Shown here: positions 25,517-46,061 of the stretch, piece after piece
Layout: each line of letters opens with the position of its first letter
Position numbering within the stretch: position 1 is the first letter of the stretch
Source: Bacteroidetes bacterium RIFCSPLOWO2_12_FULL_35_15
Lineage (GTDB): Bacteria > Bacteroidota > Bacteroidia > 2-12-FULL-35-15
DNA: 64,000 nt
Reading direction: 5' to 3'
Assembly: GCA_001769385.1 (NCBI GenBank)
Contig: MEPB01000068.1
Location: forward strand, 63,917-127,916
Notes under the pieces: generated by a model
The model's input: the letters and a program-made list of their open reading frames with translations, nothing else
Told to the model about the DNA's origin: nothing
The model's database searches: none
Program-made: the position numbers and the translations under genes

Positions 25517-25559
25517 TGACTTAAGTCATTGTATTATAATTAATTATGTGCTTTTTTTG
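25517..25559 (+). promoter_or_regulatory. TGAY-N4-RTCA box plus -7-like element upstream of the PocR histidine kinase
   Basis: Perfect palindrome TGACTTAAGTCA (25517-25528); TTTTTTTG starts exactly 35 bp later (25552). Confidence 0.55.
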
Positions 25560-25591
25560 CACTACTCTTTAAGCTATTCCTTGCAAAAAAA

Positions 25592-28102
25592 ATGGAAAAC
25601 TTAAAACCAAATTCTGAAAAAATAAAACCATTAGGTATAAACACTATTTCAGATTTTTCTTTTTCTGATCTGCTTGATATTTCTGACTTGCAGCAATTAG
25701 TGAATCATCTTTCCGAATTAGCCGGTTGTCCGATCGGAATACTTGATATAGATAATACTATTTTAGCAAGTGCCGGATGGCAAAAAATATGCACTTGTTT
25801 TCATCGCATTCATCCCGAAACGAGTCGTAATTGCACAGAAAGCGATAATTTAATCAAAAAGAATCTGAAAACAAAAAGTCCCATTGTATATAAATGCAAA
25901 AATGGATTATGGGATGTTGCTTACCCTGTTTTTATTGAAAAAAAACATGTTGCAAATATTTTCTTTGGACAATTCTTTTACGATGATGAAAAAATTGATA
26001 CGCATTATTTTGAACTTCAGGCCGAAAAATACAACTTCGACAAAACAGAATACTTGAACTGTTTAAATAAAGTTCCTGTCATTTCACGCAAAAGAGAAGA
26101 AATCTTAAAGAATTTTTCTATCACTTTAGCTCGAATGATCACTAAAGCGGGATATTCTAATTTAGTACTAAAAAAAGAAAAAATAGAAGAACTCAGTTTA
26201 GCGAATGAAAAAATAAAAGAAAGTGAGTCGAAAATCAGAAAAATATTTGAACAAGCAGGCGTTGGTGTGCTGCAGGTGGATGCTTCAAGCGGACGGTTTT
26301 TAAAAATAAACCAGAAGTTCGCTGATATGCTTGGTTACAGAAGTGATGAGCTATTGCAGTTGACCTTAAAAGATATAACTCATCCTGATGACCACAAAAA
26401 AAATCTGGACCAAATAAACTTGTTAAAAAAAAAACAAGTCAAAGAATTTTCAATTGAAAAAAGATACATCCGAAAGGATGGAACTATTCTTTGGGCAATA
26501 CTCACAGTAACTGTCCTGAACGAAACAACCGATGGGAAATTAACAAATATCGGGATCGCTCAGGATATCACTGAACGAAAAAAAGCAGAGCAAGAATTAA
26601 AAGAAAGTGAAGAAAAGTTTAAAACTGTTTTTAATCAATCTCCAATCGGACTTGAGCTTTACAACATGGATGGGCAATTGTTAGATTGCAATCCCGCCTG
26701 CCTTAATATGTTCGGGATCGATAATATACTTGAGGTAATCGGATTTAATCTTTTTGAAGATCCTAATCTAACGGAGCAACAAAAATGTGATATCAAAATA
26801 GGTAAAAATGTTCTATTTGAAATTAAATTTGATTTTGATATTGTTAAAAAACTTAATCTTTATAATACTAGTAAATCGGGCCATTGTTTTCTTAGCTGTT
26901 TTGCAACATCATTCAAAACCGAAGGAAACAATAAAACAGGAATTTTGCTTCATGTGATCGATATTACTCAACGCAAAAAAGCTGAAGTGGATTTAAAAGA
27001 AGAGAACGACCGATTCCATACTTCTATGAATGCAATGGATTCAATAGTATATGTTGCTGATCTGGAAAATCACCAGGTTTTATTTGCCAATAAATATGTT
27101 AAAGATCTATTTGGGGATATAGTCGGTAAAAAATGTTATTCAGCATTACAAGGAAAAAATGCACCCTGTGATTTTTGTACTAATCATTTATTAATTGATG
27201 ATAAGGGAAAGGCCAATCCCCCTTATGTTTGGGAATTTCAAAATTTAATTACCGGAAAATGGTACCAATGCCATGATCAGGCAATACTATGGATAAACGG
27301 GAAACTTGTGCGGTTTGAAATGGCAACTGATATTTCTGTAAATAAAGAAAATGAACAAGCATTGAAGGAAAATGAAATCAAACTTCAGGAATTAAATTCA
27401 ACCAAAGATAAATTCTTTTCTATCATCGGCCACGATTTAAAAAACCCATTTACAGTTTTGAAAAGTAGTTCCGAATTGCTTTCAGTCTATTTAGAAAAAA
27501 ATGATCTTGCCAAAAGTAAAGCAAAAGCTGCAATGATCTCGAACGCGTCCAATCATGGTTATGCTTTATTGGAAAATCTGTTAGTATGGGCGAAATCACA
27601 AACAGGAGGACTAAAGTTTGAACCCCAAAAAATAAATTTTAATACAAGTGTCTCTAAAACCATCGGAGAAATAGAAGATCATGCATTTGAAAAAAATATT
27701 GTAATAAAAAATGAAATACCGGAAGATTTGATTTTGGAAGCCGATGAAAATTTATTGTCCGTTGTTTTCCGTAATCTGATAACCAACGCTATTAAATTTA
27801 CACACCGTGGAGGATCAATAACTATAACAGCAAAAACAGATAAGGATAATGTGGAAGTGGCCGTTATTGATACAGGTATTGGTATTCCGAAAGAACATCA
27901 ATACAAACTTTTCAGGTTAGATGTCAATTTTTCAAGAGTAGGAACAGCAAATGAAGAAAGTACAAGTTTAGGATTGATCCTTTGCAAAGAATTTATTGAA
28001 AAGCACAAAGGCAAAATCTGGGTGGAGAGTGAAGCAAATAAAGGAAGTGAGTTTAGATTTACCATACCTCATATCTGGCAGGAAAATAATCCATATTCTT
28101 AA
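25592..28102 (+). CDS. Cytoplasmic sensor histidine kinase (PocR ligand-binding - PAS x3 - HisKA - HATPase)
   Basis: PocR motif GWQKICTCFHR...C..SD...YKCKNGLWDVAYP; PAS motifs THPDD/DITERK; H-box IIGHDLKNP; N-box NLITNAIKF; G1 DTGIGI. Confidence 0.9.
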   Translation: MENLKPNSEKIKPLGINTISDFSFSDLLDISDLQQLVNHLSELAGCPIGILDIDNTILASAGWQKICTCFHRIHPETSRNCTESDNLIKKNLKTKSPIVYKCKNGLWDVAYPVFIEKKHVANIFFGQFFYDDEKIDTHYFELQAEKYNFDKTEYLNCLNKVPVISRKREEILKNFSITLARMITKAGYSNLVLKKEKIEELSLANEKIKESESKIRKIFEQAGVGVLQVDASSGRFLKINQKFADMLGYRSDELLQLTLKDITHPDDHKKNLDQINLLKKKQVKEFSIEKRYIRKDGTILWAILTVTVLNETTDGKLTNIGIAQDITERKKAEQELKESEEKFKTVFNQSPIGLELYNMDGQLLDCNPACLNMFGIDNILEVIGFNLFEDPNLTEQQKCDIKIGKNVLFEIKFDFDIVKKLNLYNTSKSGHCFLSCFATSFKTEGNNKTGILLHVIDITQRKKAEVDLKEENDRFHTSMNAMDSIVYVADLENHQVLFANKYVKDLFGDIVGKKCYSALQGKNAPCDFCTNHLLIDDKGKANPPYVWEFQNLITGKWYQCHDQAILWINGKLVRFEMATDISVNKENEQALKENEIKLQELNSTKDKFFSIIGHDLKNPFTVLKSSSELLSVYLEKNDLAKSKAKAAMISNASNHGYALLENLLVWAKSQTGGLKFEPQKINFNTSVSKTIGEIEDHAFEKNIVIKNEIPEDLILEADENLLSVVFRNLITNAIKFTHRGGSITITAKTDKDNVEVAVIDTGIGIPKEHQYKLFRLDVNFSRVGTANEESTSLGLILCKEFIEKHKGKIWVESEANKGSEFRFTIPHIWQENNPYS

Positions 28103-28154
28103 ACATTTCTTTAACACTATATTCTTACTGTATTAAATTATCAAATGGTGTTTG

Positions 28155-30221
28155 TTAAATTTTAATTCCAATGACTAATATATCATCCACCTGTTCAAGA
28201 TCACCTTTCCAATCGTTTAAGGTTCTGCTTAGAATCTGCTGCTGTTGTTTCATAGATTTCTCCTGAATAGAAATGATCAACTCCTGCAAAGGTTTATACT
28301 TGAATTTTTTTCCTTTTGCACCACCAAACTGATCGGCAAAACCATCAGTAAAGATATATACAGTATCACCAGGGAACAACTCTACTTCATGGTTATTGAA
28401 CAAATGAAGTTCTTCTCCAACAAAAATTCCAATAGGAAATTTATCTCCTTTTATTTCTATTAGTTCAGGAATTTGTTTTGATCTTACTATCCATACCGGA
28501 TTATTTGCACCAGCGAATTGAAGTGTAAACGAATTTGAATTGTTTTTTTTGAGTGAACAAAGAGCAATGTCCATCCCGTCTTTCACGGCAGAATCTTCTT
28601 GAGTTTGTCGGAGTGTTTCACTCAATCCAATATTTAATTCATTTAATATATCAGAAGGTTTTATTTTATGATGTTCGTTCACGGCCTGATTCAAAAGGTT
28701 ATGACCTACAATACTCATAAACGCTCCAGGGACACCATGCCCGGTGCAATCAACAGCAGCGAATAGGATTTGTGTTGAATTATTTATTTTCACTTCCTCT
28801 ATCCAATAAAAATCACCACTTACAATATCTTTTGGTTTATAAAAAACAAAAGCATTATCCTTAAAAGTACTATTGAATGCTGCTGTTGGAAGAATCGCTT
28901 CCTGAAGGCGTTGTGCATAACGAATACTATCCTTAATATCCTTATGCTGATCTTCAATTATATTATATGCAGTTTCTATTTTTTTATTTTTTATCCCTAG
29001 CTCATTGTACACTTTTCGTTTTTGTATATAACCACGAATTGCTAGTATAGCCAGCAGTAATACCAAAAAGCCTCCAATTCCAATCGACCAGCTAATTATC
29101 CGTTGTTGCGTTAATTCATCTTCCTTTATCTTTTTATCCTTTGTTAGCAGATCAATTTCTTTTGCTTTTTTTTCTGTTTCAAAACGCGCCTGCATTTCAG
29201 CTATTTGTTTACTGTTTTCAGTATTGTAAATGGAATCATTCATTTTCTGATACAATTCAAAGTTGTCAAGCGCTTTTTTAAAATTTCCCATTTTCTTGTA
29301 TGAAGCCGAAATCCCTTTGTATGCTGCAAGAATTCGATCATTCGCTCCGATTTTTTTTGCTTGTTCCAATCCCCTGTTATAATATTCTATCGCCTTTTCA
29401 GCGTTCCCGGTAGATCGATAAAAGTCACCAAGGTTGTTTAAAGCTAAAGCCATTCCATAAATATTTCCAATTTCACTATATTTATCATATGCTTTATTAA
29501 TATAAAATAATGCCTTTGAATAATCTTTTAAATTAAGATAACTATCAGCGATATTATTATAACAGGTGGCGACAGCTTCCTTATTATCCATTTCCTCAAA
29601 TAATTTTACTGCTTGAAAACAATATTCCAATGATTTTTTATAATCCTTTTTATCGCTAAAAACAGTTCCAATAGCTATTAAGGAAGATGCGATTCCTCTT
29701 TTGCTGTTAAGTTCCTTTGAGATCGCCAATGATTGTTTAAAATAGGTATAGGCTTTATCGGGTTCATGAAGATCAAGAAAAACATTCCCGATCGAACCGG
29801 ATGATGATAAAATACCTTTTTTATTTCCGAGGCTTTCTTGAATATTTAATGCTTTTATATAATAAAACAACGCAACCTTATACTCAGCGAGGTTATAATG
29901 TCCATTGCCAATATTATTCAGTGCTTTTGCTTCTAACTTTTTTAACTTTGTTTTTTCAGCGATCTTCAATGCTTCGCTGGCATAGTTTATTGATTTTGCG
30001 GGATCAATATCTACTATCTGCTCCGAAAGTTGATTTAAAACTTGTATTCTACTACTATCGATAGTTATGGAAGGCAATACTTTTTGAAGTGAATCTATTT
30101 CGTGCTGATCTTGTGCAAATGATTCAGACACGAAACTGAGCAAAAAGAATATAAGGCAGCAATATATTAGTTCATGCCTTGCGTTTTGAAATTTTTGAAA
30201 AAATTTCAATAATTGTTTCAT
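28155..30221 (-). CDS. Periplasmic TPR - TM - SpoIIE/PP2C phosphatase signalling protein
   Basis: TPR repeats, TM, DSIRYAQRLQ, PKDIVSGDFYW, DCTGHGVPGA, TDGFADQFGG, QVDD; paralogue of 22760..24979. Confidence 0.9.
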   Translation of the reverse strand: MKQLLKFFQKFQNARHELIYCCLIFFLLSFVSESFAQDQHEIDSLQKVLPSITIDSSRIQVLNQLSEQIVDIDPAKSINYASEALKIAEKTKLKKLEAKALNNIGNGHYNLAEYKVALFYYIKALNIQESLGNKKGILSSSGSIGNVFLDLHEPDKAYTYFKQSLAISKELNSKRGIASSLIAIGTVFSDKKDYKKSLEYCFQAVKLFEEMDNKEAVATCYNNIADSYLNLKDYSKALFYINKAYDKYSEIGNIYGMALALNNLGDFYRSTGNAEKAIEYYNRGLEQAKKIGANDRILAAYKGISASYKKMGNFKKALDNFELYQKMNDSIYNTENSKQIAEMQARFETEKKAKEIDLLTKDKKIKEDELTQQRIISWSIGIGGFLVLLLAILAIRGYIQKRKVYNELGIKNKKIETAYNIIEDQHKDIKDSIRYAQRLQEAILPTAAFNSTFKDNAFVFYKPKDIVSGDFYWIEEVKINNSTQILFAAVDCTGHGVPGAFMSIVGHNLLNQAVNEHHKIKPSDILNELNIGLSETLRQTQEDSAVKDGMDIALCSLKKNNSNSFTLQFAGANNPVWIVRSKQIPELIEIKGDKFPIGIFVGEELHLFNNHEVELFPGDTVYIFTDGFADQFGGAKGKKFKYKPLQELIISIQEKSMKQQQQILSRTLNDWKGDLEQVDDILVIGIKI

Positions 30222-33600: not shown

Positions 33601-34224
33601 TTTAGAACCATCAGGCGACCATTGAGGATAAATGTTTCCTTTTTCACCTTTGGTGAATTTATATAAATTGTTGTTTGATAAATTCAATAAAAATAACTGG
33701 TCCTGATCATCGTTGTAACACACGAAATTTCCATTTGGTGATAGGGGGGCAATATTAACGTATTGACCCAAAGAATAACGGTTACTAGTTATACCATCTT
33801 TAACAATCAAATCATTTCCAACCGTGAAAGCTGTTTTTCCATTTTGAGAGAAACTGACCTGTCCGCATAGGTCAACAGGAGGATGTAATAAAATGATCTT
33901 TTTTGTTTGGATAGATAAAACGGCAGGAGCTTGTTTCCCATCTGTCTGGATATATTTAAAGCCAATACTTTTTTTATCAGGGGATAAAGTCATATACCTT
34001 CCGCAACCCGGAGAACTAAAAAGAATAGTGTACTTTCCATCCTTAAAAAGATAAATGTTGGAAGCATAATTATCGGTTGCAACAATTCCAACGGGTGTTT
34101 CCATAAAATTGATAAAATATCCATCTGTTTCTGCTTTATAAGCATCAAAAATTTTGTCTTGAGCATAAGTTAAATGCTGTCCCACAAAAATAAACAGGAC
34201 GAAAATGATCGTTTTAAATTTCAT
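30622..34224 (-). CDS. Multidomain T9SS cargo: TolB/PD40-like propeller, C39-like cysteine peptidase, golvesin-like module, beta-sandwich/Fn3 and CTD
   Basis: LSPD/WSPDG repeats; YVNQ...SCAPTSAIMAIAYY, GHLTVAVGY, NDPYG (Cys-His-Asp); TWTPTL..AGNYEI...DAMKF; CTD QPNPF...GVYILKI. Confidence 0.78.
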   Translation of the reverse strand: MKFKTIIFVLFIFVGQHLTYAQDKIFDAYKAETDGYFINFMETPVGIVATDNYASNIYLFKDGKYTILFSSPGCGRYMTLSPDKKSIGFKYIQTDGKQAPAVLSIQTKKIILLHPPVDLCGQVSFSQNGKTAFTVGNDLIVKDGITSNRYSLGQYVNIAPLSPNGNFVCYNDDQDQLFLLNLSNNNLYKFTKGEKGNIYPQWSPDGSKLMYSSISGELYIFDLQSKKTTFIAEGMYSSWVNDSQHIIFTKIETNNFRFVGSDIYTATFDGSGIINISNTSDNFEIAAIQSGNKIIYQSLNQKTVTSQPLTVNGKLSNQLIFNATGPLNISNQSFQKSVQSFTYVPGTVPYVNQVYDTPEWHYGYGSCAPTSAIMAIAYYNRVPKWPITTSNGVGNHTSNYGAYVADKYTLNQYYYQDVSATGGGENAWGGYCYMWTGSFSPHSHMRQYLSDHYLNSTQEDADNYAKVLLQINNGFPFPICNLLTTAGHLTVAVGYINGQHTIVFNDPYGNKNNGAWPNWYGQNSSYDWPGYNNGYQNLNTVAWTVTAEGSEISYNDTLIDDVYYNHGFYMNNSANGSHQRYFHDLNAGYDNHYWYTGTEAGIPDICYVTWTPTLSAAGNYEILAFIPGGTGCTAVNANYKIYHSSGVTSVVIDQTQSTGQWVSLGTYSLAAGQSAYVYLGDSSNVASQNIAFDAMKFKNMTAVDNLIPTTSIASINNWKTTNFTTTFTDTDNSGGSGIEKSYYQVQDFNGSEWHANATNGFFADNFDSYNSSIWSILAGSGIFQVSAGNLIQSDSAAGNSNIYAALNQNLSNRYLYQFNAMISPTTFGTSQHRFGFHFFSDNGALPNRGNSYFIYFRQETSTLEFYKVVNDVFTLSKTINNVTTTLGQWNDYKIIFDRTTGKVDVYRDNIFLGTWTDTSVLTTPGNYISFRTGNCKANISDLKVYRSRLPSVTVSVGAAATNDIRFQNQNASSYSGIIKSIVNDASGNLSTIADHTVNIDWTDPSCVTVNDGTGNDSDLVASLNTLSANWTSSLDPNSDIADYWYAIGTSSGATDVVNWTNNTLNTSVTRSGLTLSPGQMYYFSIKAMDGAGLNSICSSDGILVDATTGINENENAITLSIQPNPFNENATLLFSQKTEQKITISLIDVLGKEILLTSTIYSAGEHSININTAKLNLAKGVYILKISSDKYSTSLRSIKY

Positions 34225-34332
34225 AAATTAAAGTATTTGGAGCGTTAATTTTGAAGATAACAGTAGTAAATATATGAAATATTTATCCGAAAAGCACCGG
34301 TTTCAAAATTTTCAGATTTCAATTTGATGGAG

Positions 34333-34397
34333 TGACAGAAATCACTTATTCGCTTAATCAGTATCATTGAAAAAAAAAATCGATAACACTTTCTTTG
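34333..34397 (+). promoter_or_regulatory. Tandem TGAY-N4-RTCA boxes plus -7-like element upstream of the BON gene
   Basis: TGACAGAAATCA (34333), TAATCAGTATCA (34355, +22), TTTCTTTG (34390, +35). Confidence 0.6.
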
Positions 34398-34436
34398 CTA
34401 CCGATAATTTTTTATAAACTTAAAATTTAAACATTC

Positions 34437-35105
34437 ATGAAATCAGATTCAGAGATCCAAAAAAATGTAATGGAAGAGCTTAATTGGGAACCCTTACTTA
34501 ATGCCAGTGAAATTGGTGTAGCAGTTAAAAACGGAGTAGTAACACTTTCCGGGACAGTAAATACGTATAGCAAAAAACTTGCTGCTGAAGAAGCTGCAAA
34601 AAGAGTTTTAGGTGTTAAAGCTGTTGCCGAAGACCTTGAAGTTTTACTTGCTGTGCACGGTAAAAAAACAGATGCAGATATTGCACAAGCCGTAATTAAC
34701 GCTCTTAAATGGCATACTTCTATACCGGATGAGAAAATAAAAGTGAAAGTGGAAAACGGTTGGGTAACACTTGATGGAGAAGTGGAGTGGGAGTTTCAAC
34801 GAAATTCAGCCAGAACTGCTGTCAAAAATCTGGCAGGTGTTGTAGGAATCTCTAATAACATTGCCATTGTTCCAACACTTAAAATATCAGATGTAAAAAA
34901 CAAAATTACATCCGCATTTCAGCGCAGTGCAACAATTGATGCAGAAAAAATAACTATCTCTTCCGAAGGAAGCAAAGTGATACTTACCGGAAAAGTTCGT
35001 TCCTATGTAGAAAAAAGAGATGCTGAAAAGGCAGCATGGCTTGCACCTGGTGTGAATAAGGTTGAAAACAAATTAGAGATTGATGCAGAAGTATATGCCT
35101 TCTAA
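34437..35105 (+). CDS. Triple BON domain protein (OsmY-like)
   Basis: Three repeats of D..I...V...L, V.V.NG.VTL.G.V and A....GV..V.N.L. Confidence 0.92.
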   Translation: MKSDSEIQKNVMEELNWEPLLNASEIGVAVKNGVVTLSGTVNTYSKKLAAEEAAKRVLGVKAVAEDLEVLLAVHGKKTDADIAQAVINALKWHTSIPDEKIKVKVENGWVTLDGEVEWEFQRNSARTAVKNLAGVVGISNNIAIVPTLKISDVKNKITSAFQRSATIDAEKITISSEGSKVILTGKVRSYVEKRDAEKAAWLAPGVNKVENKLEIDAEVYAF

Positions 35106-35148
35106 ATTTTAACAAAAAAGAGATCAATGTTACTTACATTAAATATAT

Positions 35149-35182
35149 AAAACCCAATCTTCAAAGGTTGGGTTTTGTTTTT
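35149..35182 (+). terminator. Intrinsic terminator of the BON gene
   Basis: AAAACCCAATCT-TCAA-AGGTTGGGTTTT followed by a T-rich run. Confidence 0.7.
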
Positions 35183-35442
35183 CAATTCTAAAAATTTAAT
35201 AGTTTCTTCCATGTTCGAAAATATTCTGCTTCCAAAAATTATTACAGTGATAAGTATATTAGCTGCTCTTTTTCTTTTTTTTATAACTGTTATACTGTTT
35301 TTAGCTTCCTATATTGATGCTGTGTTTTATACTATCATTAAAACATGCCGCACATTTATTTGCCATTTTATAAAAAAAGAATTTAAGCTAATGTTTAAAT
35401 TTTAATAAAAGAATCTGATTAGGAGTGTTTTTACCAATCTTT

Positions 35443-35618
35443 TCATTTCGACTCCTTCAACTCCGCTCAGGATAAACTCATGAAGAAATCTGTTCTTTGC
35501 AAAATGAGATTTCTCTCTTCATTTCATTGCGTTCGAAATGACAGTCCCTAAATGTCATTTCGACCAGAGGGAGAAATCTCTCCTTCGATTAACAGATTTC
35601 TCTCTTCATTTCATTCGA
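35443..35618 (-). repeat. Two family A units in reverse orientation
   Basis: AGATTTCTCTCTTCATTTCATTGCGTTCGAAATGACAG is the reverse complement of the unit left half; the first unit carries the CTCCGCTCAGGATAAACT insert. Confidence 0.9.
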
Positions 35619-35748
35619 CATATAATACATGTTGAGTAAAATTTAAACATGTCCTAGAATGCTTTTATTTTATACCCTTTCCAACCATAAACCAAAATAT
35701 ATAAATACAGGGTAATTTTATTTTTTCTTTTGTAAACAAAAAATTCAT

Positions 35749-35775
35749 AAAAAAAGGCAGGTATTATCCTGCCTT
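35749..35775 (-). terminator. Intrinsic terminator, minus strand
   Basis: Minus strand AAGGCAGG-ATAATA-CCTGCC followed by T7. Confidence 0.75.
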
Positions 35776-35862
35776 CCGAAGAATAGTTTTCATAACCTTT
35801 TTACAGGTTAATATTGTCTATTTTAATCGACTCTTGATCAGAAATAAATCTGTATCAAGACT
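35749..35862 (-). ncRNA. Candidate about 110-nt small RNA
   Basis: Bounded by -7 element TACCTTTG (35874-35867) with tandem upstream boxes and by a terminator; 5' hairpin TCTTGAT/ATCAAGA; no ORF in the track. Confidence 0.45.
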
Positions 35863-35866
35863 GAAA

Positions 35867-35931
35867 CAAAGGTAAACTGAATTCATTTTAATTCTCTTGA
35901 CCTTCATCAATAAAACGTAAGATAGATATCA
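35867..35931 (-). promoter_or_regulatory. Tandem TGAY-N4-RTCA boxes plus -7 element (minus strand)
   Basis: Boxes at 35920-35931 and 35898-35909 (TTGACCTTCATCAA), 22 bp apart; TACCTTTG begins 35 bp from the proximal box. Confidence 0.62.
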
Positions 35932-35958
35932 CTATTTTTTAAAATTACGTTTTGCTTT

Positions 35959-35989
35959 AAAAAAAAGCAGGTCCTTACGAACCTGCTTT
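35959..35989 (-). terminator. Intrinsic terminator, minus strand
   Basis: Minus strand AAAGCAGGTTC-GTAA-GGACCTGC followed by T8. Confidence 0.8.
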
Positions 35990-36455
35990 CCGGATTTCTA
36001 CTCGTTTTTCATGCTTACTCAGCATTTATTACGAGTATTTATTCTTTCATAATCTTAGCGAAACGTACGTAACCGGTTTATTAAACCGACCTTGGATTTG
36101 ACAGTTTAACCATTTTTTAGGATGGGTGTATATCTGCTTCAATCAAATATGCAGGTTGTCCTTACATATTACAGTTGCCTGTCTTTGAGCGTTTCAACAA
36201 AACAACATCATCGCTGACGTTTATTCTATTTACTAAGCCTATACTATGTTCCGATTATTCCTAAACCCCAACAGCCATTACAAACTATTACTTTGGACAG
36301 CGGAATGCAAGCATTACCATCTATCTATCTGAAAAAGGATTTTCACCTTAAACAGCATCAACTTTCGTTGCCTTTGAGTCTGTCAGTTTTAAAAATCTTT
36401 TACAATTTATATTTTCTGACCTAACTTATGTTTAAGAACAATTTCTTTAATTATG
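35959..36455 (-). ncRNA. Candidate large (about 500 nt) structured non-coding RNA of unknown class
   Basis: Promoter TAATTTTG (36469-36462), boxA-like TGTTCTTAAACA, several helices with GNRA/T-loop-like caps, terminator at the 3' end, and no ORF of 60 aa or more on either strand. Confidence 0.55.
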
Positions 36456-36461
36456 ACGATA

Positions 36462-36526
36462 CAAAATTACAACGATTGTAAGGCGATTGGTATGAACTCC
36501 ATCACCATTGATGGTGATTAATCGCA
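36462..36526 (-). promoter_or_regulatory. Tandem TGAY-N4-RTCA-like boxes plus -7 element driving the candidate large ncRNA
   Basis: Boxes 36515-36526 and 36493-36504, 22 bp apart; TAATTTTG starts 35 bp from the proximal box. Confidence 0.6.
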
Positions 36527-36569
36527 TTAATAAAAAAAATCAGAATTGTTTTTTTATTAATTGTAAGAG

Positions 36570-36634
36570 TGATTAAAATCAAATTTCATTTTGATCCTCC
36601 TCATTCTGAAACCTAAGAAGCCTTTATACATTCG
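36570..36634 (+). promoter_or_regulatory. Tandem TGAY-N4-RTCA-like boxes plus -7-like element upstream of spt
   Basis: TGATTAAAATCA (36570), TGATCCTCCTCA (36592, +22), TACATTCG (36627, +35). Confidence 0.6.
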
Positions 36635-36642
36635 ACTTTTAA

Positions 36643-37890
<1,248 letters not shown>

Positions 37891-37945
37891 TTTTTTAGTA
37901 TGAAAGAATGGTTAGCAGATTACTCTATAGATTAAAAAAAAAGAT

Positions 37946-38452
37946 ATGACCACATTTATAGTAAGTACATTAATTAATCAACCGCTTGGTATTGTAACAA
38001 AAGCATTGGTGAATCCGGAGAATTTTTCTTATTGGACCACTGATTTGGTAAAGTTTGAAGTAATGAAAGGAACACCAGGGGAAGTTGGTGCAATTAATCA
38101 TTTGCATTATTTGCAAAAAGGACGTTCCTATGTTATGGAAGATAAACTAATTTATTGTGAGCCCGGAAAAAAATATGTATCACAAGTTTCAGGGGATGCG
38201 CTAACTGCTATTGTAGAGACAGTGCTTCATCCCTTGGGAAATAAAACTGAAATGAAAGTAACATGGTCTGGAAAAGGGAAACTGTTTTTTTTGAAATTTT
38301 TGCTTCCATTACTACGCGGAAAGCTTATAAAACAATCGAAAGCAGAATTAGGGTCTTTTAAAAAATTAGTAGAAACTAAAGGATATGATTTTAAAAACTA
38401 TGACCATGTTTCTAATAAAACAAGTTTAAAATTAGCTGACAAAATAAAATAA
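37946..38452 (+). CDS. SRPBCC/START-like ligand-binding protein
   Basis: About 160-aa pattern IN.P...V...L.NPEN...W...L...E...G.PG.VG, with a C-terminal long helix ending FKKLVE. Confidence 0.7.
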   Translation: MTTFIVSTLINQPLGIVTKALVNPENFSYWTTDLVKFEVMKGTPGEVGAINHLHYLQKGRSYVMEDKLIYCEPGKKYVSQVSGDALTAIVETVLHPLGNKTEMKVTWSGKGKLFFLKFLLPLLRGKLIKQSKAELGSFKKLVETKGYDFKNYDHVSNKTSLKLADKIK

Positions 38453-38457
38453 ATTTC

Positions 38458-39585
38458 ATGATCCAGGTAAAAGAGGTTAAAACAAAAAAACAATTATCGG
38501 ACTTTATTAAATTTCCTGATATTCTTTATTATAACAATAAATACAGGGTGCCACAATTACATTCGTATGAGAAATCTATCTTGAAACCTTCTAATAATCC
38601 TGCATTTGAATTTTGTGAGGCAAAATATTGGCTGGCTTATGATAACGATAATATTGTTGGCAGGATCGCTGGTATCATCAATAAAAAGGCCAATGAGGTC
38701 TGGAACGAAAAAATTGCACGGTTCGGCTGGATTGATTTTGTCAATAATAAAAATGTATCATATGCATTAATTAAAACAGTTGAAGATTGGGGCAAATTAA
38801 ATGGAATGACAAAAATTCAAGGTCCGATGGGATTCACTGATATGGATCTGGAGGGAATGTTGGTGGAAGGTTTTGAGGAAGTAGGGACCCAAGCTGTGAT
38901 CTACAACCATCCTTACTATCCTGATCATTTGGAATTAAATGGGTATTCGAAAGATGCGGATTGGGTACAATTTGAGATAAAAGTACCTGATAAAGTACCT
39001 GACAAAGTAAAACGTGTTTCAGAGATTGTACAAAAGAAATATAATTTAAGACCATTAAAAGCAAAAAAGGCAAAAGACTTAATCCCTTATGCAAAAAAAA
39101 TGTTTAACACGCTGAATACATCATTTAAAGACCTTTATGGTTTTGTGCCGCTGAATGAAAAACAAAAAGATTTTTATATTAAGCAATATTTCTCAATGGT
39201 CAACCCAAAATTTGCCAGCTTTGTACTCGATAAAAATGATGATGTAGTCGGCTTTGGGATTTCTTTTGCTTCCCTTTCCGAAGCAATGATAAAGGCAAAA
39301 GGGAAATTATTTCCAACTGGATTTTATCATATTTTAAAAGCAATGCGTAAAAACGATAAAGTGGATATGCTTTTACAAGGAGTGAAACCGGAGTACAAGA
39401 ACAAAGGAGTGCCCGCTATTTTTTTTTCTGAAATGATGCAGGCCTATATTGATAGTGGTGTAAAAACAGCGGTTTCAAGTCACGCATTAGAAAATAATCA
39501 AAGTGCATTTTTAATGTTTAATGATTATGAATCCCGACAACATTTAAGACGAAGAAGCTACGCCAAACAATTAGATGCAAAATGA
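38458..39585 (+). CDS. Putative bacterial ceramide synthase (GNAT-fold N-acyltransferase)
   Basis: VGRIAGIIN, FGWIDF, GPMGFTDMDLEGMLVEGF, YNHPYY and GVKPEY..KG motifs; lies between spt and an NAD-dependent reductase. Confidence 0.72.
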   Translation: MIQVKEVKTKKQLSDFIKFPDILYYNNKYRVPQLHSYEKSILKPSNNPAFEFCEAKYWLAYDNDNIVGRIAGIINKKANEVWNEKIARFGWIDFVNNKNVSYALIKTVEDWGKLNGMTKIQGPMGFTDMDLEGMLVEGFEEVGTQAVIYNHPYYPDHLELNGYSKDADWVQFEIKVPDKVPDKVKRVSEIVQKKYNLRPLKAKKAKDLIPYAKKMFNTLNTSFKDLYGFVPLNEKQKDFYIKQYFSMVNPKFASFVLDKNDDVVGFGISFASLSEAMIKAKGKLFPTGFYHILKAMRKNDKVDMLLQGVKPEYKNKGVPAIFFSEMMQAYIDSGVKTAVSSHALENNQSAFLMFNDYESRQHLRRRSYAKQLDAK

Positions 39586-40577
39586 AAAAAGTACTTATAA
39601 CAGGAGCAAGTGGATTCATAGGAAGTTTTTTGGTAGAAGAAGCTTTAAAAAGAAATTATGAGGTTTATGCAAGTATCAGAAAAACAAGCAACACCGAATA
39701 TCTTACTGATCCACGAATAAAATTTATTGAACTTGATTTTTCTGATAAGGATTCATTAAGTAAAAAAATATTCGGATTGCCTTATTTTGATTATGTAATT
39801 CATAGTGCAGGACTTACAAAAGCTGTGCAAAAAAGCGACTACTTTTTAACTAATTTTCAGTACACAAAAAACATCATTAAGGTGTTGATAAGTCAAAAAC
39901 GGATTCCCCAAAAATTTATTTATATGAGTAGCCTTGCCGCCTATGGCCCTGGGGACCCGATTTTACTTCAAGAAATTAAATCATCCGACACACCAAATCC
40001 GGTTACTTCTTATGGAAAAAGTAAACTTGAATCCGAAAAATATTTATCTACATTGATTGATTTTCCATATGTGATCATAAGACCAACGGCTGTATATGGC
40101 CCAAGAGAAAAAGATCTGTACACCGTTTTTAAACTTATCAATAAAAATCTTGAACTATTTGTAGGTTCAAAAAAACAACATCTTTCATTTGTGTATGTAA
40201 AAGATCTTGTAAAAGTGGTGTTTCAGACAATGGAATCGAATATTGTAAATAAAGGATATTTTGTTTCGGATGGAAATGTGTATGATGGTGAGATACTGGG
40301 AAATATTATAAAGGAGCAGCTCAATAAAAAAACTATCCGGATAAAAGTTCCTGTTGAAATGGCCAGATGGATAGCAATGATCACAGAGGGAACAAAATAT
40401 ATAACCGGGAAACAACCCGTATTAAATCTTGAAAAGATAAAAGAGCTGGAATCTATAAATTGGAAATGCGATGTACAGCCACTTTTCGATGATTTTAATT
40501 TTAAACCGGAATATAATTTAAGCCAAGGCATAACTGAAACAATTCAGTGGTACAGGCAAGCAAACTGGTTAAAATAA
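39582..40577 (+). CDS. NAD(P)-dependent epimerase/dehydratase, putative ceramide reductase
   Basis: TGASGFIG, SSLAAYGP, YGKSK and RPTAVYGP motifs; ATGA overlap with the preceding gene. Confidence 0.72.
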   Translation: MKKVLITGASGFIGSFLVEEALKRNYEVYASIRKTSNTEYLTDPRIKFIELDFSDKDSLSKKIFGLPYFDYVIHSAGLTKAVQKSDYFLTNFQYTKNIIKVLISQKRIPQKFIYMSSLAAYGPGDPILLQEIKSSDTPNPVTSYGKSKLESEKYLSTLIDFPYVIIRPTAVYGPREKDLYTVFKLINKNLELFVGSKKQHLSFVYVKDLVKVVFQTMESNIVNKGYFVSDGNVYDGEILGNIIKEQLNKKTIRIKVPVEMARWIAMITEGTKYITGKQPVLNLEKIKELESINWKCDVQPLFDDFNFKPEYNLSQGITETIQWYRQANWLK

Positions 40578-40660
40578 ATTTGCAATTATTTTTTTATGAA
40601 TTCAATCAATTATTTTAATATCTAAACTCATTAACCAAAGGAATCTAAATTGAATTCATT

Positions 40661-41143
40661 ATGAACACACCAGAAAATTTTGAAACAGGTTGTTGTCCAC
40701 GGTTAAATGTTGATGCCTGGCAGGAAAAAGAAATTCATTTTGAAAATAAATTATTTCTTAAAGATCATGTAACCAGTATTTTTCATATTCCCTTGAATTT
40801 CGGAAAGGTCATGGAAAGAGACATGGCCATGATTGAGAAAGCACATGCTCAATCAAAGGAGCAGATTGTTCTTACAGATGAAAAATCTCCTTGGGGAGCG
40901 GATGTCTATATTGCGGTTGAAAAGGAAGTTCCAAAGGCAGAAATGAAAAAAATATCAGGTACTTTTTTAACCAAAGTATTTGAAGGACCTTATACTAAAA
41001 TGGGTAAATATGTGGAGGAGATGGAGAGTTATGTGAAATCCAAAAATAAAGAAATAAAAAAACTGTATTTCTACTATGCCTATTGTCCAAGCTGTGCAAA
41101 AGCGTATGGAAAAAATTATATCGTTATTCTTGCTAAAGTATAG
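40661..41143 (+). CDS. Conserved hypothetical protein (GyrI-like fold suspected) with CCP and CxxC motifs
   Basis: TGCCPR N-terminus, FLTKVFEGPY and YCPSCAKAYGKNY C-terminus. Confidence 0.65.
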   Translation: MNTPENFETGCCPRLNVDAWQEKEIHFENKLFLKDHVTSIFHIPLNFGKVMERDMAMIEKAHAQSKEQIVLTDEKSPWGADVYIAVEKEVPKAEMKKISGTFLTKVFEGPYTKMGKYVEEMESYVKSKNKEIKKLYFYYAYCPSCAKAYGKNYIVILAKV

Positions 41144-42596: not shown

Positions 42597-42604
42597 AGCT
42601 ATTG

Positions 42605-42994
42605 TTACAATTGTTTTTCTGTAAGTTCTTTTCGAGCTTTTAAATCATTCTGAATTATTATTTCAATTAATTGATTTCGATTTTCCATGCTGCTTAATAA
42701 ACAGCTCCACGAAGGGTAATTGTCTTTTTTGTGCTTGTTATTCTCCCATTGCAAAGGTTGCAAATTAGTAAGATCATCTGTTCCACCCAGGGATTTAGGT
42801 TTAATATGATCTATTTCCCAGGCCATTGATAATGAACCTTTCGTTACTCCATATAAATCTTTTTTTATCAGTGCTCCACACTTATCTTTTCTGATCATTT
42901 GTGGATCAAAGTCAGAAACTATTTTACCTTTCTCCCAAGCTTTCTCAATTAGCTCAGGAGTAAATATTTTTTTATCTATTTGTCTATTTGTCAA
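42605..42994 (-). CDS. HNH endonuclease family protein
   Basis: WEIDHIKPKSLGGTDDLTNLQPLQWENN motif. Confidence 0.88.
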   Translation of the reverse strand: MTNRQIDKKIFTPELIEKAWEKGKIVSDFDPQMIRKDKCGALIKKDLYGVTKGSLSMAWEIDHIKPKSLGGTDDLTNLQPLQWENNKHKKDNYPSWSCLLSSMENRNQLIEIIIQNDLKARKELTEKQL

Positions 42995-43175
42995 TGTTCT
43001 GTTTTTTTCGGTTTAAGTAAAGATAGGTGTCAACCAGTTTTGCAGCGTTCCCTATTGTTAATACAGCTTGTGTCAGGTCCTCTTCGGTGCAGCAAAGCAA
43101 TTCACTCCAACATTTTAATTCCTGTTTATTTAAAATGTCAATACGCCCATTATTGATATTTAATTGTTCCTGCAT
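42984..43175 (-). CDS. DUF3606-like small protein
   Basis: RID.....EL..W...L....E.L..AV..IG.....V..YL pattern. Confidence 0.6.
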   Translation of the reverse strand: MQEQLNINNGRIDILNKQELKCWSELLCCTEEDLTQAVLTIGNAAKLVDTYLYLNRKKQNIDK

Positions 43176-43226
43176 CTGTTCCGGATTTTATGGTATAAAA
43201 TTATTTCATTAAAACTTAGTGGTCAA

Positions 43227-43290
43227 GAGTAAAATTACCCTTTTTGTTTAGGGGGTAATTTTACCCCTTTATGGGGGTAAAATTACCCCC
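43227..43290. promoter_or_regulatory. Three palindromic GGGTAA(A/T)(A/T)TTACCC sites in a divergent intergenic region
   Basis: GAGTAAAATTACCC (43227), GGGGGTAATTTTACCCC (43251), GGGGGTAAAATTACCCCC (43273). Confidence 0.6.
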
Positions 43291-43426
43291 TTAAAATTTT
43301 TATAAATTTTATTACATATTGTAAATCAGCGCATTAATATTTTTTGATGTTTTAAAATACAGTCCGCTATTTTCTTCTTTAGTATATTTGAAAAAAATTA
43401 TTGTTAAACAATTAAATATAAAAATT

Positions 43427-43738
43427 ATGAGTTTTACAGGAGAAGAAAATCACGAGATTTCATTAGAACAAGCTTCTACATGGACAAAAGATTACAGGGA
43501 TCTAGACCCTAGAGCCACTAAAGGACACTTTTTTGGAAAAAATGCAATCCAGAGCATTTTAGATCAAACAGATTGTGTTGGAATCAGAATTTATTACGGT
43601 TTGGATGGTGATGGAGCAAAACAATTGATTATAGCCGGTGCAACAGCAAATGAAGATGATCTTTACGAAGGATTGCTGGCGGAAAGAAGTATGCCAACTC
43701 CTCCATTTGGAGGAGCAAATAATCCTTTGAACAGCTAG
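43427..43738 (+). CDS. Conserved small hypothetical protein heading a two-component cassette
   Basis: ATG at 43427 preferred to TTG 43388, which overlaps the TATATTTG -7 element at 43383; motifs ISL..A..WT..YR, GIRIYYG, LIIAG. Confidence 0.75.
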   Translation: MSFTGEENHEISLEQASTWTKDYRDLDPRATKGHFFGKNAIQSILDQTDCVGIRIYYGLDGDGAKQLIIAGATANEDDLYEGLLAERSMPTPPFGGANNPLNS

Positions 43739-43761
43739 GCCAAAGAAAAAATCTTAATTTT

Positions 43762-43788
43762 AAGACGGCTATTGCCGTCTTTTTTTTT
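43762..43788 (+). terminator. Intrinsic terminator/attenuator after the small gene
   Basis: AAGACGGC-TATT-GCCGTC followed by T9. Confidence 0.75.
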
Positions 43789-43792
43789 ACAA

Positions 43793-44440
43793 ATGGATAC
43801 TAAATTTTTAGATTGTTTCGGTTACATCTCAATTGCATTCTCAATAATTCCGTTATTGGTTGGATTTATTTGTATTAAAACAATTAAGAGCTATTTAGTT
43901 CCATTGTTTTTAATTGTCTTTATTTCTGCATGTGTTGAAATAATTAGTCGAATTATCGCAAATATTTATGAGAACAATTTTCCAATACTTCACATTTATA
44001 CGGGCATAGAATTTTCGTTGATCTTTGTTTTTTATATGCTTTTTTATAAACAATATTATAAATTTAAAATTTTATATTTAATTCTTCCGGTGTTTTATGT
44101 GGTTACATACATCGATTATAAAGTAAACGGACTAAATGAAATGGATAGCTTTTCGGTTACAGTTGAGTCCGCCTTTTTTATTATAACCTCCTTACTTTCT
44201 TTCTTCTTTATTATTCGGCATTTGATCTTTGAGAATATTTTAAATATGCCTTTTTTTTGGATAAATTCAGGGATCCTGATTTATTTTTCAGGTAATATTT
44301 TATTATTTATTTTTAGTAATTCCTTTATCAAATCAGAAATAAAAACATTTTTAATATTATGGGCTATTATTCATTCTCTTTTAAATATTATTTATAATAG
44401 TTTAATTTGTATTGGTTTCTCGAAATCCCGCATAAAATGA
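43793..44440 (+). CDS. Multi-pass (about 7 TM) membrane protein, probable sensor partner
   Basis: ATG at 43793 within ORF 43772..44440; hydrophobic helices, N..ILHIYT..EF and PFFWINSGILIYFSG motifs. Confidence 0.75.
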   Translation: MDTKFLDCFGYISIAFSIIPLLVGFICIKTIKSYLVPLFLIVFISACVEIISRIIANIYENNFPILHIYTGIEFSLIFVFYMLFYKQYYKFKILYLILPVFYVVTYIDYKVNGLNEMDSFSVTVESAFFIITSLLSFFFIIRHLIFENILNMPFFWINSGILIYFSGNILLFIFSNSFIKSEIKTFLILWAIIHSLLNIIYNSLICIGFSKSRIK

Positions 44441-45237
44441 GTACAACGATATTATTAATTATAGGAACATTCGCAATTTTATTTTTAACCTTTTTTGTCA
44501 TTTTTTTTGTTCTTATTCACCAAAAAAGAATGTTTGAAAACAGGGCCTTGATAATAAATAAAGAAAATATACATCAGAAAAAATTAATAGATGCATCCAT
44601 TGAAGTAGCGGAATTAGAGCGGGAAAAAATTGCCAAGGATATTCACGATGATGTAGGTTCTGTTTTGAATGTAATTAATTTACATTTAAACAGAATATCA
44701 CGTAGCGTGGATGATAAAGTATTAATGAAAGAGTTGATTCATGAAAGCAAGGACTTGCTGGAATCGTCAATCGAAACTATTCGAGGAATATCAAGAGATC
44801 TGATGCCGCCAATTTTAATTCGTTTGGGATACGAGAAAGGGATAGCTGAATTGTGCCGCCAGATAAAATTTTCAAATGCAATTGAAACAACCTTCATAAC
44901 ATCCGCACAGGAATTTGCTATCTCCAAAAGAGTTGAATTGCAATTGTACAGAATAGTACAGGAAGTCGTAAATAATATTATCAAACACGCTAAAGCATCT
45001 GAGATAAAGATAACATTGCAAAGCAGTCCTTCCGTTTTTACAACAGAAATATTTCATGATGGAAAAGGTATCAGTTCAGAAATGATCAACCAATTATCAG
45101 AAGGAAAGGGTGGAGTGGGACTAAGAAGCATTCAGAGCCGAGCGCAAATGATAAGTGCTACTGTTCAATATGTTACCATTAGTGAAAAGAGATCTTTAAT
45201 TATTATAGAAGTTCCAACGTATGAAATTACCAATTAA
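44437..45237 (+). CDS. Single-TM histidine kinase (HisKA_3 type)
   Basis: ATGA overlap with the upstream stop; EREKIAKDIHDDVG, YRIVQEVVNNIIKHA, DGKG and GVGL motifs. Confidence 0.9.
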   Translation: MSTTILLIIGTFAILFLTFFVIFFVLIHQKRMFENRALIINKENIHQKKLIDASIEVAELEREKIAKDIHDDVGSVLNVINLHLNRISRSVDDKVLMKELIHESKDLLESSIETIRGISRDLMPPILIRLGYEKGIAELCRQIKFSNAIETTFITSAQEFAISKRVELQLYRIVQEVVNNIIKHAKASEIKITLQSSPSVFTTEIFHDGKGISSEMINQLSEGKGGVGLRSIQSRAQMISATVQYVTISEKRSLIIIEVPTYEITN

Positions 45238-45871
45238 ACTAGCAGTGGTGGATGATCACGACCTTTTTAGAAAAGGACTGATTGCTTTACTAAAAGATTT
45301 TCCGGAATTAGAAGTTGTGATGGAAGCTTCGAACGGTGAAGAGCTACTCGAGCAGCTAAAAAAGAAACGGGTAGATGTGATTCTAATGGATATACAAATG
45401 CCAAAAATGGATGGTATTGAAGCTACTGAGCGATTGCAAAATAAATATGCAAACACTAAAATAATAATATTAACGATGCATAATGAGGAAGGCTTCATAC
45501 ATCACCTCATAAGTAAAGGGGCGCATGGTTTTCTTTTAAAGAATCAAGATATAGAAATAGTTGTTGATGCCATTTATGGAGTGCTGGAAAATGGATATTT
45601 TTTTAACGATCGGGTTTCAAGAGCAATGGTAAAAGGACTTGTTGAGAGTAATAAAATTCGTCCTGAATTTAATGAAGTAAGTTTAACAGAGCGGGAAATT
45701 GAAATTATTCGTTTGATCAGTAAAGAACTTACGAATAGGGAGATCGCAGAAAAGCTTATGCTAAGCGTCAGAACTGTTGACGGATATAAGGAAAAAATAT
45801 TCGAAAAAACAAAAACAAAAAACTCTATTGGAATTGTAATGTATGCAGTTAGGCACAATTTGCTGGGATAA
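45221..45871 (+). CDS. NarL/LuxR family response regulator
   Basis: VVDDH, LMDIQMP.MDG, ILTMH, FLLK and the HTH LTEREIEII...TNREIAEKL..S.RTV. Confidence 0.93.
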   Translation: MKLPIKLAVVDDHDLFRKGLIALLKDFPELEVVMEASNGEELLEQLKKKRVDVILMDIQMPKMDGIEATERLQNKYANTKIIILTMHNEEGFIHHLISKGAHGFLLKNQDIEIVVDAIYGVLENGYFFNDRVSRAMVKGLVESNKIRPEFNEVSLTEREIEIIRLISKELTNREIAEKLMLSVRTVDGYKEKIFEKTKTKNSIGIVMYAVRHNLLG

Positions 45872-45996
45872 AATAAGTTCCTTACAAATTGTTTAAATTT
45901 ATTTACAACCTGTCTTTTCGCATCAACCATTCTGTCTTTGATGGGGTACCGATTTCCACATATACTTCTCATTCAACTATTCAGCTATTCAAATAT

Positions 45997-46061
45997 TGAT
46001 ATAGGTCATTATTCTATTTGATGATTGTCATTTTAGACTGCTCCTTTTCATTACAATTTTG
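45997..46061 (+). promoter_or_regulatory. Tandem TGAY-N4-RTCA boxes plus -7-like element upstream of the metal-efflux operon
   Basis: TGATATAGGTCA (45997), TGATGATTGTCA (46019, +22), CAATTTTG (46054, +35). Confidence 0.65.

Follow-up and report, generated by a model that had tools for sequence, protein, structure and literature searches.

What kind of regulatory element is the short palindrome TGAY-N4-RTCA that recurs, at one fixed distance from the −7 element, in a 64,000-nucleotide stretch of contig MEPB01000068.1 from Bacteroidetes bacterium RIFCSPLOWO2_12_FULL_35_15 (the window), and which protein recognizes it? A first-pass annotation of the window had described such boxes at six promoters, those of a BON-domain gene, a small RNA (sRNA) candidate, a large RNA (lRNA) candidate, an spt-like operon, an arsR/efflux gene run and a PocR-PAS kinase gene, and had proposed that they form an undescribed regulon under one activator. 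Having followed the boxes through the whole genome (an assembly of 5.39 Mb, with 34.6% G+C and 110 contigs, whose −7 promoter element and numerous T9SS and SprB domains point to Bacteroidota) and through other genomes of the phylum, we interpret them with high confidence as predicted operators for activators of the Crp/Fnr family, placed at the inferred class II position. The tandem form of the box most likely belongs to a histidine kinase and its partner, a fusion of a receiver domain (REC) to a Crp module, with low oxygen or a related redox cue as the likely signal, an assignment in which we place moderate confidence. The regulon is also not limited to six promoters, with about 80 to 126 candidates in this genome.

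We found all 11 boxes and every −7 element of the six promoters where the annotation had placed them. The starts of paired boxes were always 22 bp apart, and the distance from the proximal box to the −7 element was 35 bp in all six cases. Judged against TGAY-N4-RTCA, six of the 11 boxes fitted exactly (those at 25517, 34333, 35898-35909, 36570, 45997 and 46019), four had a one-base mismatch (BON proximal, sRNA distal, lRNA proximal and spt proximal), and the lRNA distal box had a two-base mismatch. The −7 elements, judged against TAnnTTTG, were perfect for the sRNA and lRNA and had one mismatch for BON, spt, arsR and PocR, consistent with the earlier remark that several of them deviate from the consensus. 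Five of the six promoters passed the scoring matrix described below, whereas that of the lRNA (4.6, 0.6) fell below threshold. The boxes, −7 elements and genes of the protein-coding promoters are listed here with matrix scores, and those of the RNA candidates are given further on.

25517..25528, no strand assigned: single box before the PocR gene, perfect and palindromic TGACTTAAGTCA, proximal score 13.3, no distal box
25552-25559: PocR −7-like element TTTTTTTG, 35 bp past the box start
25592-28102, plus strand: PocR-PAS histidine kinase gene (Pfam PocR, PAS, HATPase_c), downstream of the single box
34333..34366, plus strand: BON tandem boxes, distal TGACAGAAATCA perfect (14.3), proximal TAATCAGTATCA with one mismatch (3.8)
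34390-34397, plus strand: BON −7-like element TTTCTTTG, one mismatch
34437-35105, plus strand: BON-domain gene, one of four paralogues of 222 amino acids (aa), all behind box promoters
36570..36603, plus strand: tandem boxes of the spt-like operon, distal TGATTAAAATCA perfect (15.6), proximal TGATCCTCCTCA with one mismatch (5.2)
36627-36634, plus strand: spt −7-like element TACATTCG, one mismatch
36679-41143, plus strand: spt-like operon, encoding an Spt/KBL-like aminotransferase, two proteins without a Pfam family, an NAD-dependent epimerase/reductase-family protein and a Bact_hydrolase protein
45997..46030, plus strand: arsR/efflux boxes, both perfect, TGATATAGGTCA (13.3) and TGATGATTGTCA (13.2)
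46054-46061, plus strand: arsR −7-like element CAATTTTG, one mismatch
46187 to 56889, plus strand: arsR/efflux gene run, with an ArsR-type regulator (46187-46492), a resistance-nodulation-division (RND) pump (46510-49707), an outer-membrane factor, two CusB-type adaptors and a P-type ATPase

The six exact matches were the only perfect boxes in the window, and all were intergenic. The 8,909 bases of intergenic DNA, defined with a crude open reading frame (ORF) mask, thus contained 6 perfect boxes compared with 0.53 predicted from the Markov-3 rate (Poisson P of approximately 2e-5), and the coding DNA contained none compared with approximately 3.3 expected. The 20.5-kb stretch that spans the six promoters harbored 6 listed promoter sites, one of them a mirror artefact, as compared with 0.48 expected from the genome average.

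In the genome as a whole, the count of 503 boxes was not enriched over the 461 expected from base composition. Intergenic DNA contained 225 perfect boxes, compared with 41 to 46 in Markov-1 and Markov-3 simulations, and its box density was five times that of coding DNA. The distance from 230 perfect intergenic boxes to TAnnTTTG, tabulated for offsets of −60 to +120, had its only peaks at 35 bp, with 24 sites, and at 57 bp, with 20, while each other offset had 0 to 5 sites. In 12 Markov-3 simulations of intergenic DNA, the box followed by 23 nt and TAnnTTTG did not occur (23 sites in the genome), the box followed by 45 nt and TAnnTTTG occurred 0.25 times (19 sites), and box-N10-box did not occur (17 sites). 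The spaced pattern therefore withstood the comparison with simulated DNA. The box consensus, tTGAT-N4-ATCAa, showed equal conservation of both halves and has the TTGAT-N4-ATCAA-like form listed for FnrL sites in PMC2908626, in agreement with the FNR/CRP-family likeness that the first-pass annotation had recognized.

A symmetric 16-mer scoring matrix was prepared from well-placed boxes, and both box positions were scored upstream of 22,373 intergenic −7-like sites (one mismatch at most). The summed box score reached at least 6 at 79 of these sites, compared with 2.8 in controls shifted by 4 to 9 bp, while a score of at least 10 was reached by the proximal box at 69 sites (7.6 in shifted controls) and by the distal box at 52 (7.5). 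Merging yielded 126 candidate promoters, including 57 tandem promoters (both boxes at least 5), 42 with a proximal box only, and 23 with a strong distal and a weak proximal box. An ORF of at least 100 aa started at −30 to +400 bp for 113 of the 126, with a median distance of 52 bp from the −7 element to the start codon. Where only one box was perfect, the other position retained a weak TGA...TCA consensus; between tandem and single promoters, the box cores were alike and the sole distinguishing feature was a TT after the proximal box. Mean identity at non-motif positions was 33%, reaching at least 60% in one of 7,875 pairs (two sRNA paralogues), and the promoters are therefore not duplicates of one another. 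A search for a missing −33 element revealed weak enrichment of TTG at −27, −23 and −22 in 927 other promoters, with the 38 box promoters being too few to compare.

The textbook position of CRP and FNR as class II activators is −41.5. Given that TAnnTTTG spans −12 to −5 in Flavobacterium psychrophilum according to PMC9723704, the proximal boxes would be centered at −41.5 (−47 to −36) and the distal boxes at −63.5, a placement that relies on transcription starts of another species. We infer from these values a class II arrangement of activators, with the two boxes on the same face of the helix.

To find proteins able to occupy such sites, we looked for CRP/FNR-family regulators and identified 14 genes for cNMP-domain proteins, 11 of which encode a Crp-type helix-turn-helix. 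These 11 proteins, all with Pfam cNMP_binding and HTH_Crp_2 domains, comprise two fusions and nine stand-alone paralogues, and the earlier proposal of one activator does not stand. The recognition helix reads E..(S/I/V/T)R in 10 of the 11, with E..SR or E..IR in the fusions, and FNR, FixK and DNR sites are described as virtually identical and not distinguishable in PMC2908626. Assignment of paralogues by recognition helix was tried and failed, and sequence alone therefore cannot allot the boxes to individual paralogues. Crp/Fnr homologues of Flavobacteriales have been placed in a MalR-like group, as reported in PMC8510549.

The two fusions are single polypeptides of 352 and 353 aa consisting of REC, cNMP_binding and HTH_Crp_2 domains. 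The Response_reg matches had E values of 5e-30 and 2e-29, and the acidic pocket, the D of a CDVMMP stretch, and the T and K positions of receivers were visible in the alignment. One fusion gene (C52:37687-38745) lies directly behind a gene for a PAS-HisKA-HATPase kinase of 395 aa. The PAS domain of this kinase had the haem domains of FixL and DosP as its best solved-structure matches (E values of 1e-13 to 1e-10), and its His62, which does not vary across an alignment of 13 kinases, lines up with the His in the RSRH stretch of FixL, taken here to be the haem ligand. The pair lies beside cbb3-oxidase maturation genes, and its neighbors include a gene for a ccoI-like P-type ATPase and a ccoS-ccoNO cluster. 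The other fusion gene (C56:61097-62158) comes third in a hemerythrin-Usp operon located behind one of the highest-scoring tandem promoters (15.9, 14.5), and an island of 17 promoters, 14 of them tandem, surrounds it within 56 kb. FNR proper has four Cys ligands, three of them near the NH2-terminus, where the fusions instead carry a receiver; and whereas a separate FixJ activates a separate fixK in the FixLJ-FixK system, REC and the Crp/Fnr module are here one polypeptide. An N-terminal CxxC and further Cys residues were present in five of the stand-alone paralogues.

We examined the distribution of the boxes with exact patterns in 200 other genomes of the phylum (49 of the same class, 151 of other classes) and in a class-wide sample of 198 genomes, from which two genomes flagged as unpublished were left out. 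The strict single-box pattern (box, 23 nt, TAnnTTTG) was present in 42 of 49 same-class genomes (0 to 11 copies); among the 151 genomes from other classes it occurred in 40, usually in one or two copies. Our genome, with 26 such sites, had the most in the sample, and a reversed-pattern control gave approximately zero in 201 genomes. Perfect tandem boxes were found in 13 of 26 genomes with the fusion versus 6 of 23 without it in the phylum sample. Class-wide, 111 of the 198 genomes had a full-length fusion match with an E value of 1e-50 or better, and the corresponding numbers were 77 of 111 versus 22 of 87. By family, 39 had both the fusion and tandem boxes, 21 had neither, two had the fusion only and four had tandem boxes only, so that 60 of 66 were concordant. 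Perfect tandem sites numbered 18 in our genome and 14 in the next highest of those sampled. A side observation concerns genome G064, of another class, whose four perfect tandem matches lie on four contigs with near-identical spacers; they look like repeat copies rather than promoters, and exact-pattern counts can be inflated by repeats.

Boxes were also concentrated around the fusion genes themselves. Twenty fusion loci of 20 kb, from 19 other genomes, contained 96 perfect boxes and 41 geometry hits, with at least one hit in 18 of the 20, and of the 62 strict sites in these genomes, seven fell within the loci, which account for 0.5% of their DNA. The gene adjoining the fusion encoded a PAS-HisKA-HATPase kinase in 16 loci and Usp in two. 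Genes located behind boxes in these loci encode ccoNO (two cases), a ccoI-like ATPase, cytochrome c, hemerythrin (two), Usp (four), Hsp20 (two), BON, CBS and phosphoenolpyruvate (PEP) synthase, as well as a PAS kinase, ScdA, phosphoketolase and 2-hydroxyacid dehydrogenase. The oxygen or redox link suggested by the first-pass annotation is thus backed by context, both by a FixL-like haem-PAS kinase and REC-Crp regulator beside cbb3-oxidase maturation genes and by cbb3 oxidase, hemerythrin and Usp genes behind the same boxes in other genomes.

The explanation that we consider probable on balance is that Crp/Fnr-family activators act at the boxes of housekeeping promoters, that the kinase and REC-Crp pair acts on the tandem form, and that the output is a response to hypoxia or stress. 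According to this proposal, the promoters would be read by the housekeeping sigma factor and the boxes would bind dimeric Crp/Fnr-family activators. Low oxygen or a related redox signal would lead the kinase to phosphorylate the receiver of the REC-Crp regulator, two dimers of which would then occupy the tandem boxes cooperatively; at BON and spt, for instance, a strong distal box would help a weak proximal one. RNA polymerase would be recruited by the dimer at the proximal box, and the expected output would include BON, CsbD, Hsp20, DUF892, Usp, Dps, Ku, PolX, PEP synthase, metal efflux, the spt-like lipid operon and the sRNA. Single boxes, including that of PocR, may be served by the stand-alone FNR-like paralogues.

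Several observations weigh against this explanation. The strict single-box pattern was as common with the fusion (3.8 per genome, n = 26) as without it (3.7, n = 23), which means that single boxes do not follow the fusion. Perfect tandem boxes were also present in 22 of the 87 genomes in which no fusion was detected, and one genome, G135, has seven tandem boxes and no fusion, the boxes being next to a gene for a stand-alone Crp protein of 238 aa. The Fisher P of 1e-9 for the class-wide split is overstated, given that related genomes are not independent, and the table by family is fairer for this reason. The nine stand-alone paralogues have near-identical recognition helices, and four of the five stand-alone Crp/Fnr genes with a nearby box have a single one. 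Upstream of the ccoS-ccoNO cluster of our genome (C52:49582-49653), two strong boxes (12.1, 13.1) are 60 bp apart and depart from the 35-bp/57-bp geometry, so that the cbb3 oxidase promoter seems to be built unlike the rest of the regulon. The lRNA boxes score below threshold, the sRNA orthologue of genome G208 has lost the proximal box, and the BON orthologue of genome G202 yielded no geometry hit. Our gene calls were also crude, being ORFs of at least 100 aa with an ATG start.

Some of these points suit a rival explanation, in which stand-alone FNR-like paralogues, possibly iron-sulfur proteins (C110:17781-18491, for example), bind all the boxes and the fusions play a minor role or serve only their own island. 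The N-terminal CxxC of five paralogues, their recognition helices matching those of the fusions, the strong single box near each of the C110, C72, C53 and C77 stand-alone genes, the equal frequency of the strict single-box pattern with and without the fusion, the tandem boxes of G135, and the indistinguishable FNR, FixK and DNR sites reported in PMC2908626 are all compatible with it. The tandem boxes, however, follow the fusion class-wide, in the genome counts as well as in the families; boxes cluster at 18 of the 20 fusion loci, and the C56 island places 14 tandem promoters around a fusion gene. Sequence, moreover, cannot reveal binding specific to one paralogue. We regard this rival as rather unlikely.

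Crp/Fnr proteins can also act as repressors, and the boxes might instead be repressor operators, or sites for a dimer of another family, with the fixed distance to the −7 element serving occlusion. However, a box centered at −41.5 and assisted by a second one two turns of the helix farther upstream has the geometry of an activator site, the box matches FNR and FixK sites, and Crp/Fnr genes adjoin boxes. The presence of one mismatch to TAnnTTTG in 75 of the 126 candidate −7 elements may also speak against repression. This possibility therefore appears improbable. Still less credit can be given to the idea that an alternative sigma factor uses the box as its upstream (−35-like) element. The rigid spacing to the downstream element would fit such a role, but the box is palindromic with halves equally conserved, it occurs in tandem at 22 bp, and the downstream element is the housekeeping TAnnTTTG. 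In addition, boxes are used jointly by the promoters of seven back-to-back pairs, whose −7 elements are exactly 59 bp (three pairs, one shared box) or 81 bp (four pairs, two shared boxes) apart, an arrangement predicted for a two-fold symmetric protein and not for a sigma-factor element. The window itself contains a weak example of the 81-bp arrangement:

20043..20076, no strand assigned: extra weak box pair (scores 5.5 and 5.9), common to back-to-back −7 elements at 20019 (minus strand) and 20100 (plus strand), 81 bp apart
17679-19991: gene for a protein with a type IX secretion system (T9SS) tail, behind the minus-side −7 element of this pair

An origin of the pattern by chance in AT-rich spacers, or through promoter duplication, is already refuted: the genome-wide count is close to the mononucleotide expectation and some targets are paralogous (BON four times, the sRNA twice, the lRNA three times), but the intergenic density is five times that simulated, the spaced patterns number 17 to 23 against approximately zero with sharp distance peaks, the reversed pattern is virtually absent from 201 genomes, and only one promoter pair in 7,875 is alike outside the motifs.

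The candidate promoters precede 112 distinct genes, all of which were scanned against Pfam. Stress and protection genes encode BON (four), DUF892 (three), CsbD (two), Hsp20 (two), Usp (two) and YceI (two) proteins, a Dps-like ferritin, OsmC, MscL and an HtrA-type protease, and DNA repair is represented by Ku and a PolX polymerase. Targets in redox metabolism and respiration comprise hemerythrin, cytochrome c peroxidase and NADH dehydrogenase chain 3 (two). Metabolic targets are PEP synthase, enolase, pyrophosphatase, formate-tetrahydrofolate ligase, an ADP-forming acyl-CoA ligase and a component of 2-hydroxyglutaryl-CoA dehydratase, and metal-related targets are Nramp, a multicopper oxidase and a CusB-type adaptor. 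Signaling proteins include KaiC, CBS, a SpoIIE phosphatase and six PAS or histidine-kinase proteins, and 13 surface proteins have a T9SS tail or SprB repeats. No Pfam family was found for 23 of 108 target proteins. This gene content looks like a combined program for hypoxia and general stress or dormancy. Among the BON orthologues, the tandem boxes were retained in two of three same-genus relatives checked.

For the two RNA candidates, the annotation had claimed that both belong to the regulon, and our results separate them. The sRNA is located behind a tandem promoter that passes the scoring threshold, whereas membership of the lRNA is doubtful because its boxes are weak. Their features are as follows.

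35750-35862, minus strand: sRNA candidate of approximately 110 nt, predicted to form three hairpins, of which the last is a terminator with a U run
35867-35874, minus strand: sRNA −7 element TACCTTTG, perfect
35898..35931, minus strand: sRNA tandem boxes, proximal 35898-35909 TGATGAAGGTCA perfect (13.0), distal 35920-35931 TGATATCTATCT with one mismatch (6.0)
35955-36469, minus strand: lRNA candidate, structured, approximately 500 nt, stopping at a terminator hairpin
36462-36469, minus strand: lRNA −7 element TAATTTTG, perfect
36493..36526, minus strand: degenerate lRNA box pair, proximal TGATGGAGTTCA (4.6), distal TGCGATTAATCA (0.6), below threshold

A paralogue of the sRNA (C18:67446-67568), 84% identical, is also located behind a box promoter, and the orthologue in G208 is 86% identical. 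A plus-strand candidate promoter at 35933 was rejected as spurious, given that it is the mirror image of the palindromic sRNA box and has no gene downstream. The lRNA is present in three copies in the genome, including C8:16631-17138 and C18:75966-76473 (82 to 83% identical), and has orthologues in five of 67 other species of the genus. RNAalifold predicted 131 pairs from eight lRNA sequences, 51 of them with compensatory changes, together with a long-range closing helix, and CAAAG(G/A) words are found repeatedly within or next to the predicted hairpins. In both paralogues and one orthologue, the inner half-sites of the lRNA box pair, ATCA and TGAY, are preserved with the same geometry. No Rfam family reached the gathering threshold anywhere in the window, matches below threshold within 35100-36700 being at chance level. 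Among metatranscriptome contigs (four runs from four studies), only 36035-36442, within the lRNA, was covered in the interval 34200-37000, and the contigs are therefore uninformative on promoters other than that of the lRNA. Some of these contigs replace or skip a variable inner stretch, roughly 36167-36337, and in eight RNA runs only 6 to 7% of sampled words were present. The lRNA candidate is real as an RNA-like element.

Several features of the window adjoin these promoters. A putative role of the spt-like operon in sphingolipid (ceramide) synthesis is plausible, and a putative copper label for the arsR/efflux genes is reasonable. The gene for the RND pump (AcrB/CusA-type) is split by an in-frame TGA at 47776-47778, exactly between its halves: ORFs 46510-47778 and 47785-49707 match Pfam ACR_tran positions 4-415 and 407-1021, respectively, with an ATG 7 bases after the TGA. 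This arrangement could represent a pump naturally encoded by two genes, a site of read-through or a pseudogene. Two genes for TPR-SpoIIE (PP2C-type) phosphatases are located on either side of the PocR-PAS kinase gene (22760-24979 and 28155-30221, both minus strand), and a third TPR-SpoIIE gene (C35:30198-32015) lies downstream of a box promoter, a placement that may point to a layer of partner switching connected with the regulon. The stretch 35443-35621, located between the BON gene and the sRNA, is a copy of a dispersed, often tandem repeat that is 82 to 94% identical to at least 15 places in the genome (contigs C48, C66, C68 and C94), with shorter matches in same-genus relatives.

Gene regulation in Bacteroidota beyond polysaccharide use is poorly mapped, and to our knowledge no stress sigma factor of the RpoS, SigB or EcfG type exists in the phylum. 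In support of the "undescribed" label, a full-text literature search, with most subscription journals outside its scope, found no REC-Crp regulator and no tandem FNR-type boxes in Bacteroidota. Here one short motif of rigid geometry predicts about a hundred co-regulated promoters in one genome, and the motif tracks a receiver-Crp/Fnr fusion paired with a FixL-like kinase in more than half of the sampled genomes of the class. New in this work are the genome-wide statistics, the geometry of 35, 57, 59 and 81 bp, the class-wide co-distribution of tandem boxes and fusion, the size and stress flavor of the regulon, and the fact that its targets include a small RNA. We suggest tentatively that the kinase and REC-Crp pair, with tandem boxes (−41.5 and −63.5) bound by a dimer of dimers of one phosphorylation-dependent Crp-family activator, may be a general stress or dormancy switch of Bacteroidota. 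Were this so, high-affinity respiration would be induced together with protection (BON, Hsp20, Dps, DUF892 and CsbD), DNA-end repair (Ku and PolX), metal efflux, envelope lipid remodeling and dedicated non-coding RNAs, and the genome studied here would be the most expanded version so far, with 18 tandem sites versus 14 or fewer elsewhere. Confirmation would provide a testable model of low-oxygen sensing and entry into a protected state in soil, water and host-associated bacteria, together with a list of target genes, many of unknown function. The fixed spacings of 35 and 22 bp may also render the promoters useful as parts for Bacteroidota genetic tools.

Three known systems invite comparison. 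The FNR and CRP promoters of class II in Escherichia coli, tandem-site ones included, resemble those described here in the FNR-type palindrome, centered at −41.5 provided that the −7 element extends from −12 to −5, and the recognition helix of E. coli FNR has the E..SR pattern, which reads ESVSR in the C56 fusion. The fusions differ in carrying a receiver where FNR has a cysteine cluster; a cAMP-type ligand is not implied, the promoters differ in their elements and sigma factor, and the second site is fixed at 22 bp. In mycobacteria, a haem sensor kinase and a response regulator (DosS/DosT-DosR) induce Usp, small heat-shock and survival genes under hypoxia, and the gene content of our regulon (Usp, Hsp20) is similar in kind. 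This likeness is one of analogy only: DosR has a LuxR/NarL-type output, its sensors have GAF domains, and its DNA motif is unrelated.

The FixL-FixJ-FixK system of rhizobia and Caulobacter shares with ours a haem-PAS-type kinase (PAS match to FixL with an E value of 1e-13 and the aligned His invariant), a phospho-receiver step, and a Crp/Fnr-type protein for TTGAT-N4-ATCAA-like boxes. It also shares targets of the cbb3 oxidase and Usp type, with the regulator pair here located beside cco and ccoI-like genes. Unlike the rhizobial system, the present one has rigid tandem boxes (predicted centers at −41.5 and −63.5) and a Bacteroidota −7 element, and its predicted regulon is far larger and rich in general-stress genes. 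The receiver is, in addition, fused to the Crp/Fnr module, so that no separate FixJ (REC with a LuxR-type helix-turn-helix) or fixK is needed. If confirmed, the kinase and REC-Crp pair would be a natural example of the two-tier FixLJ-FixK cascade collapsed into one protein.

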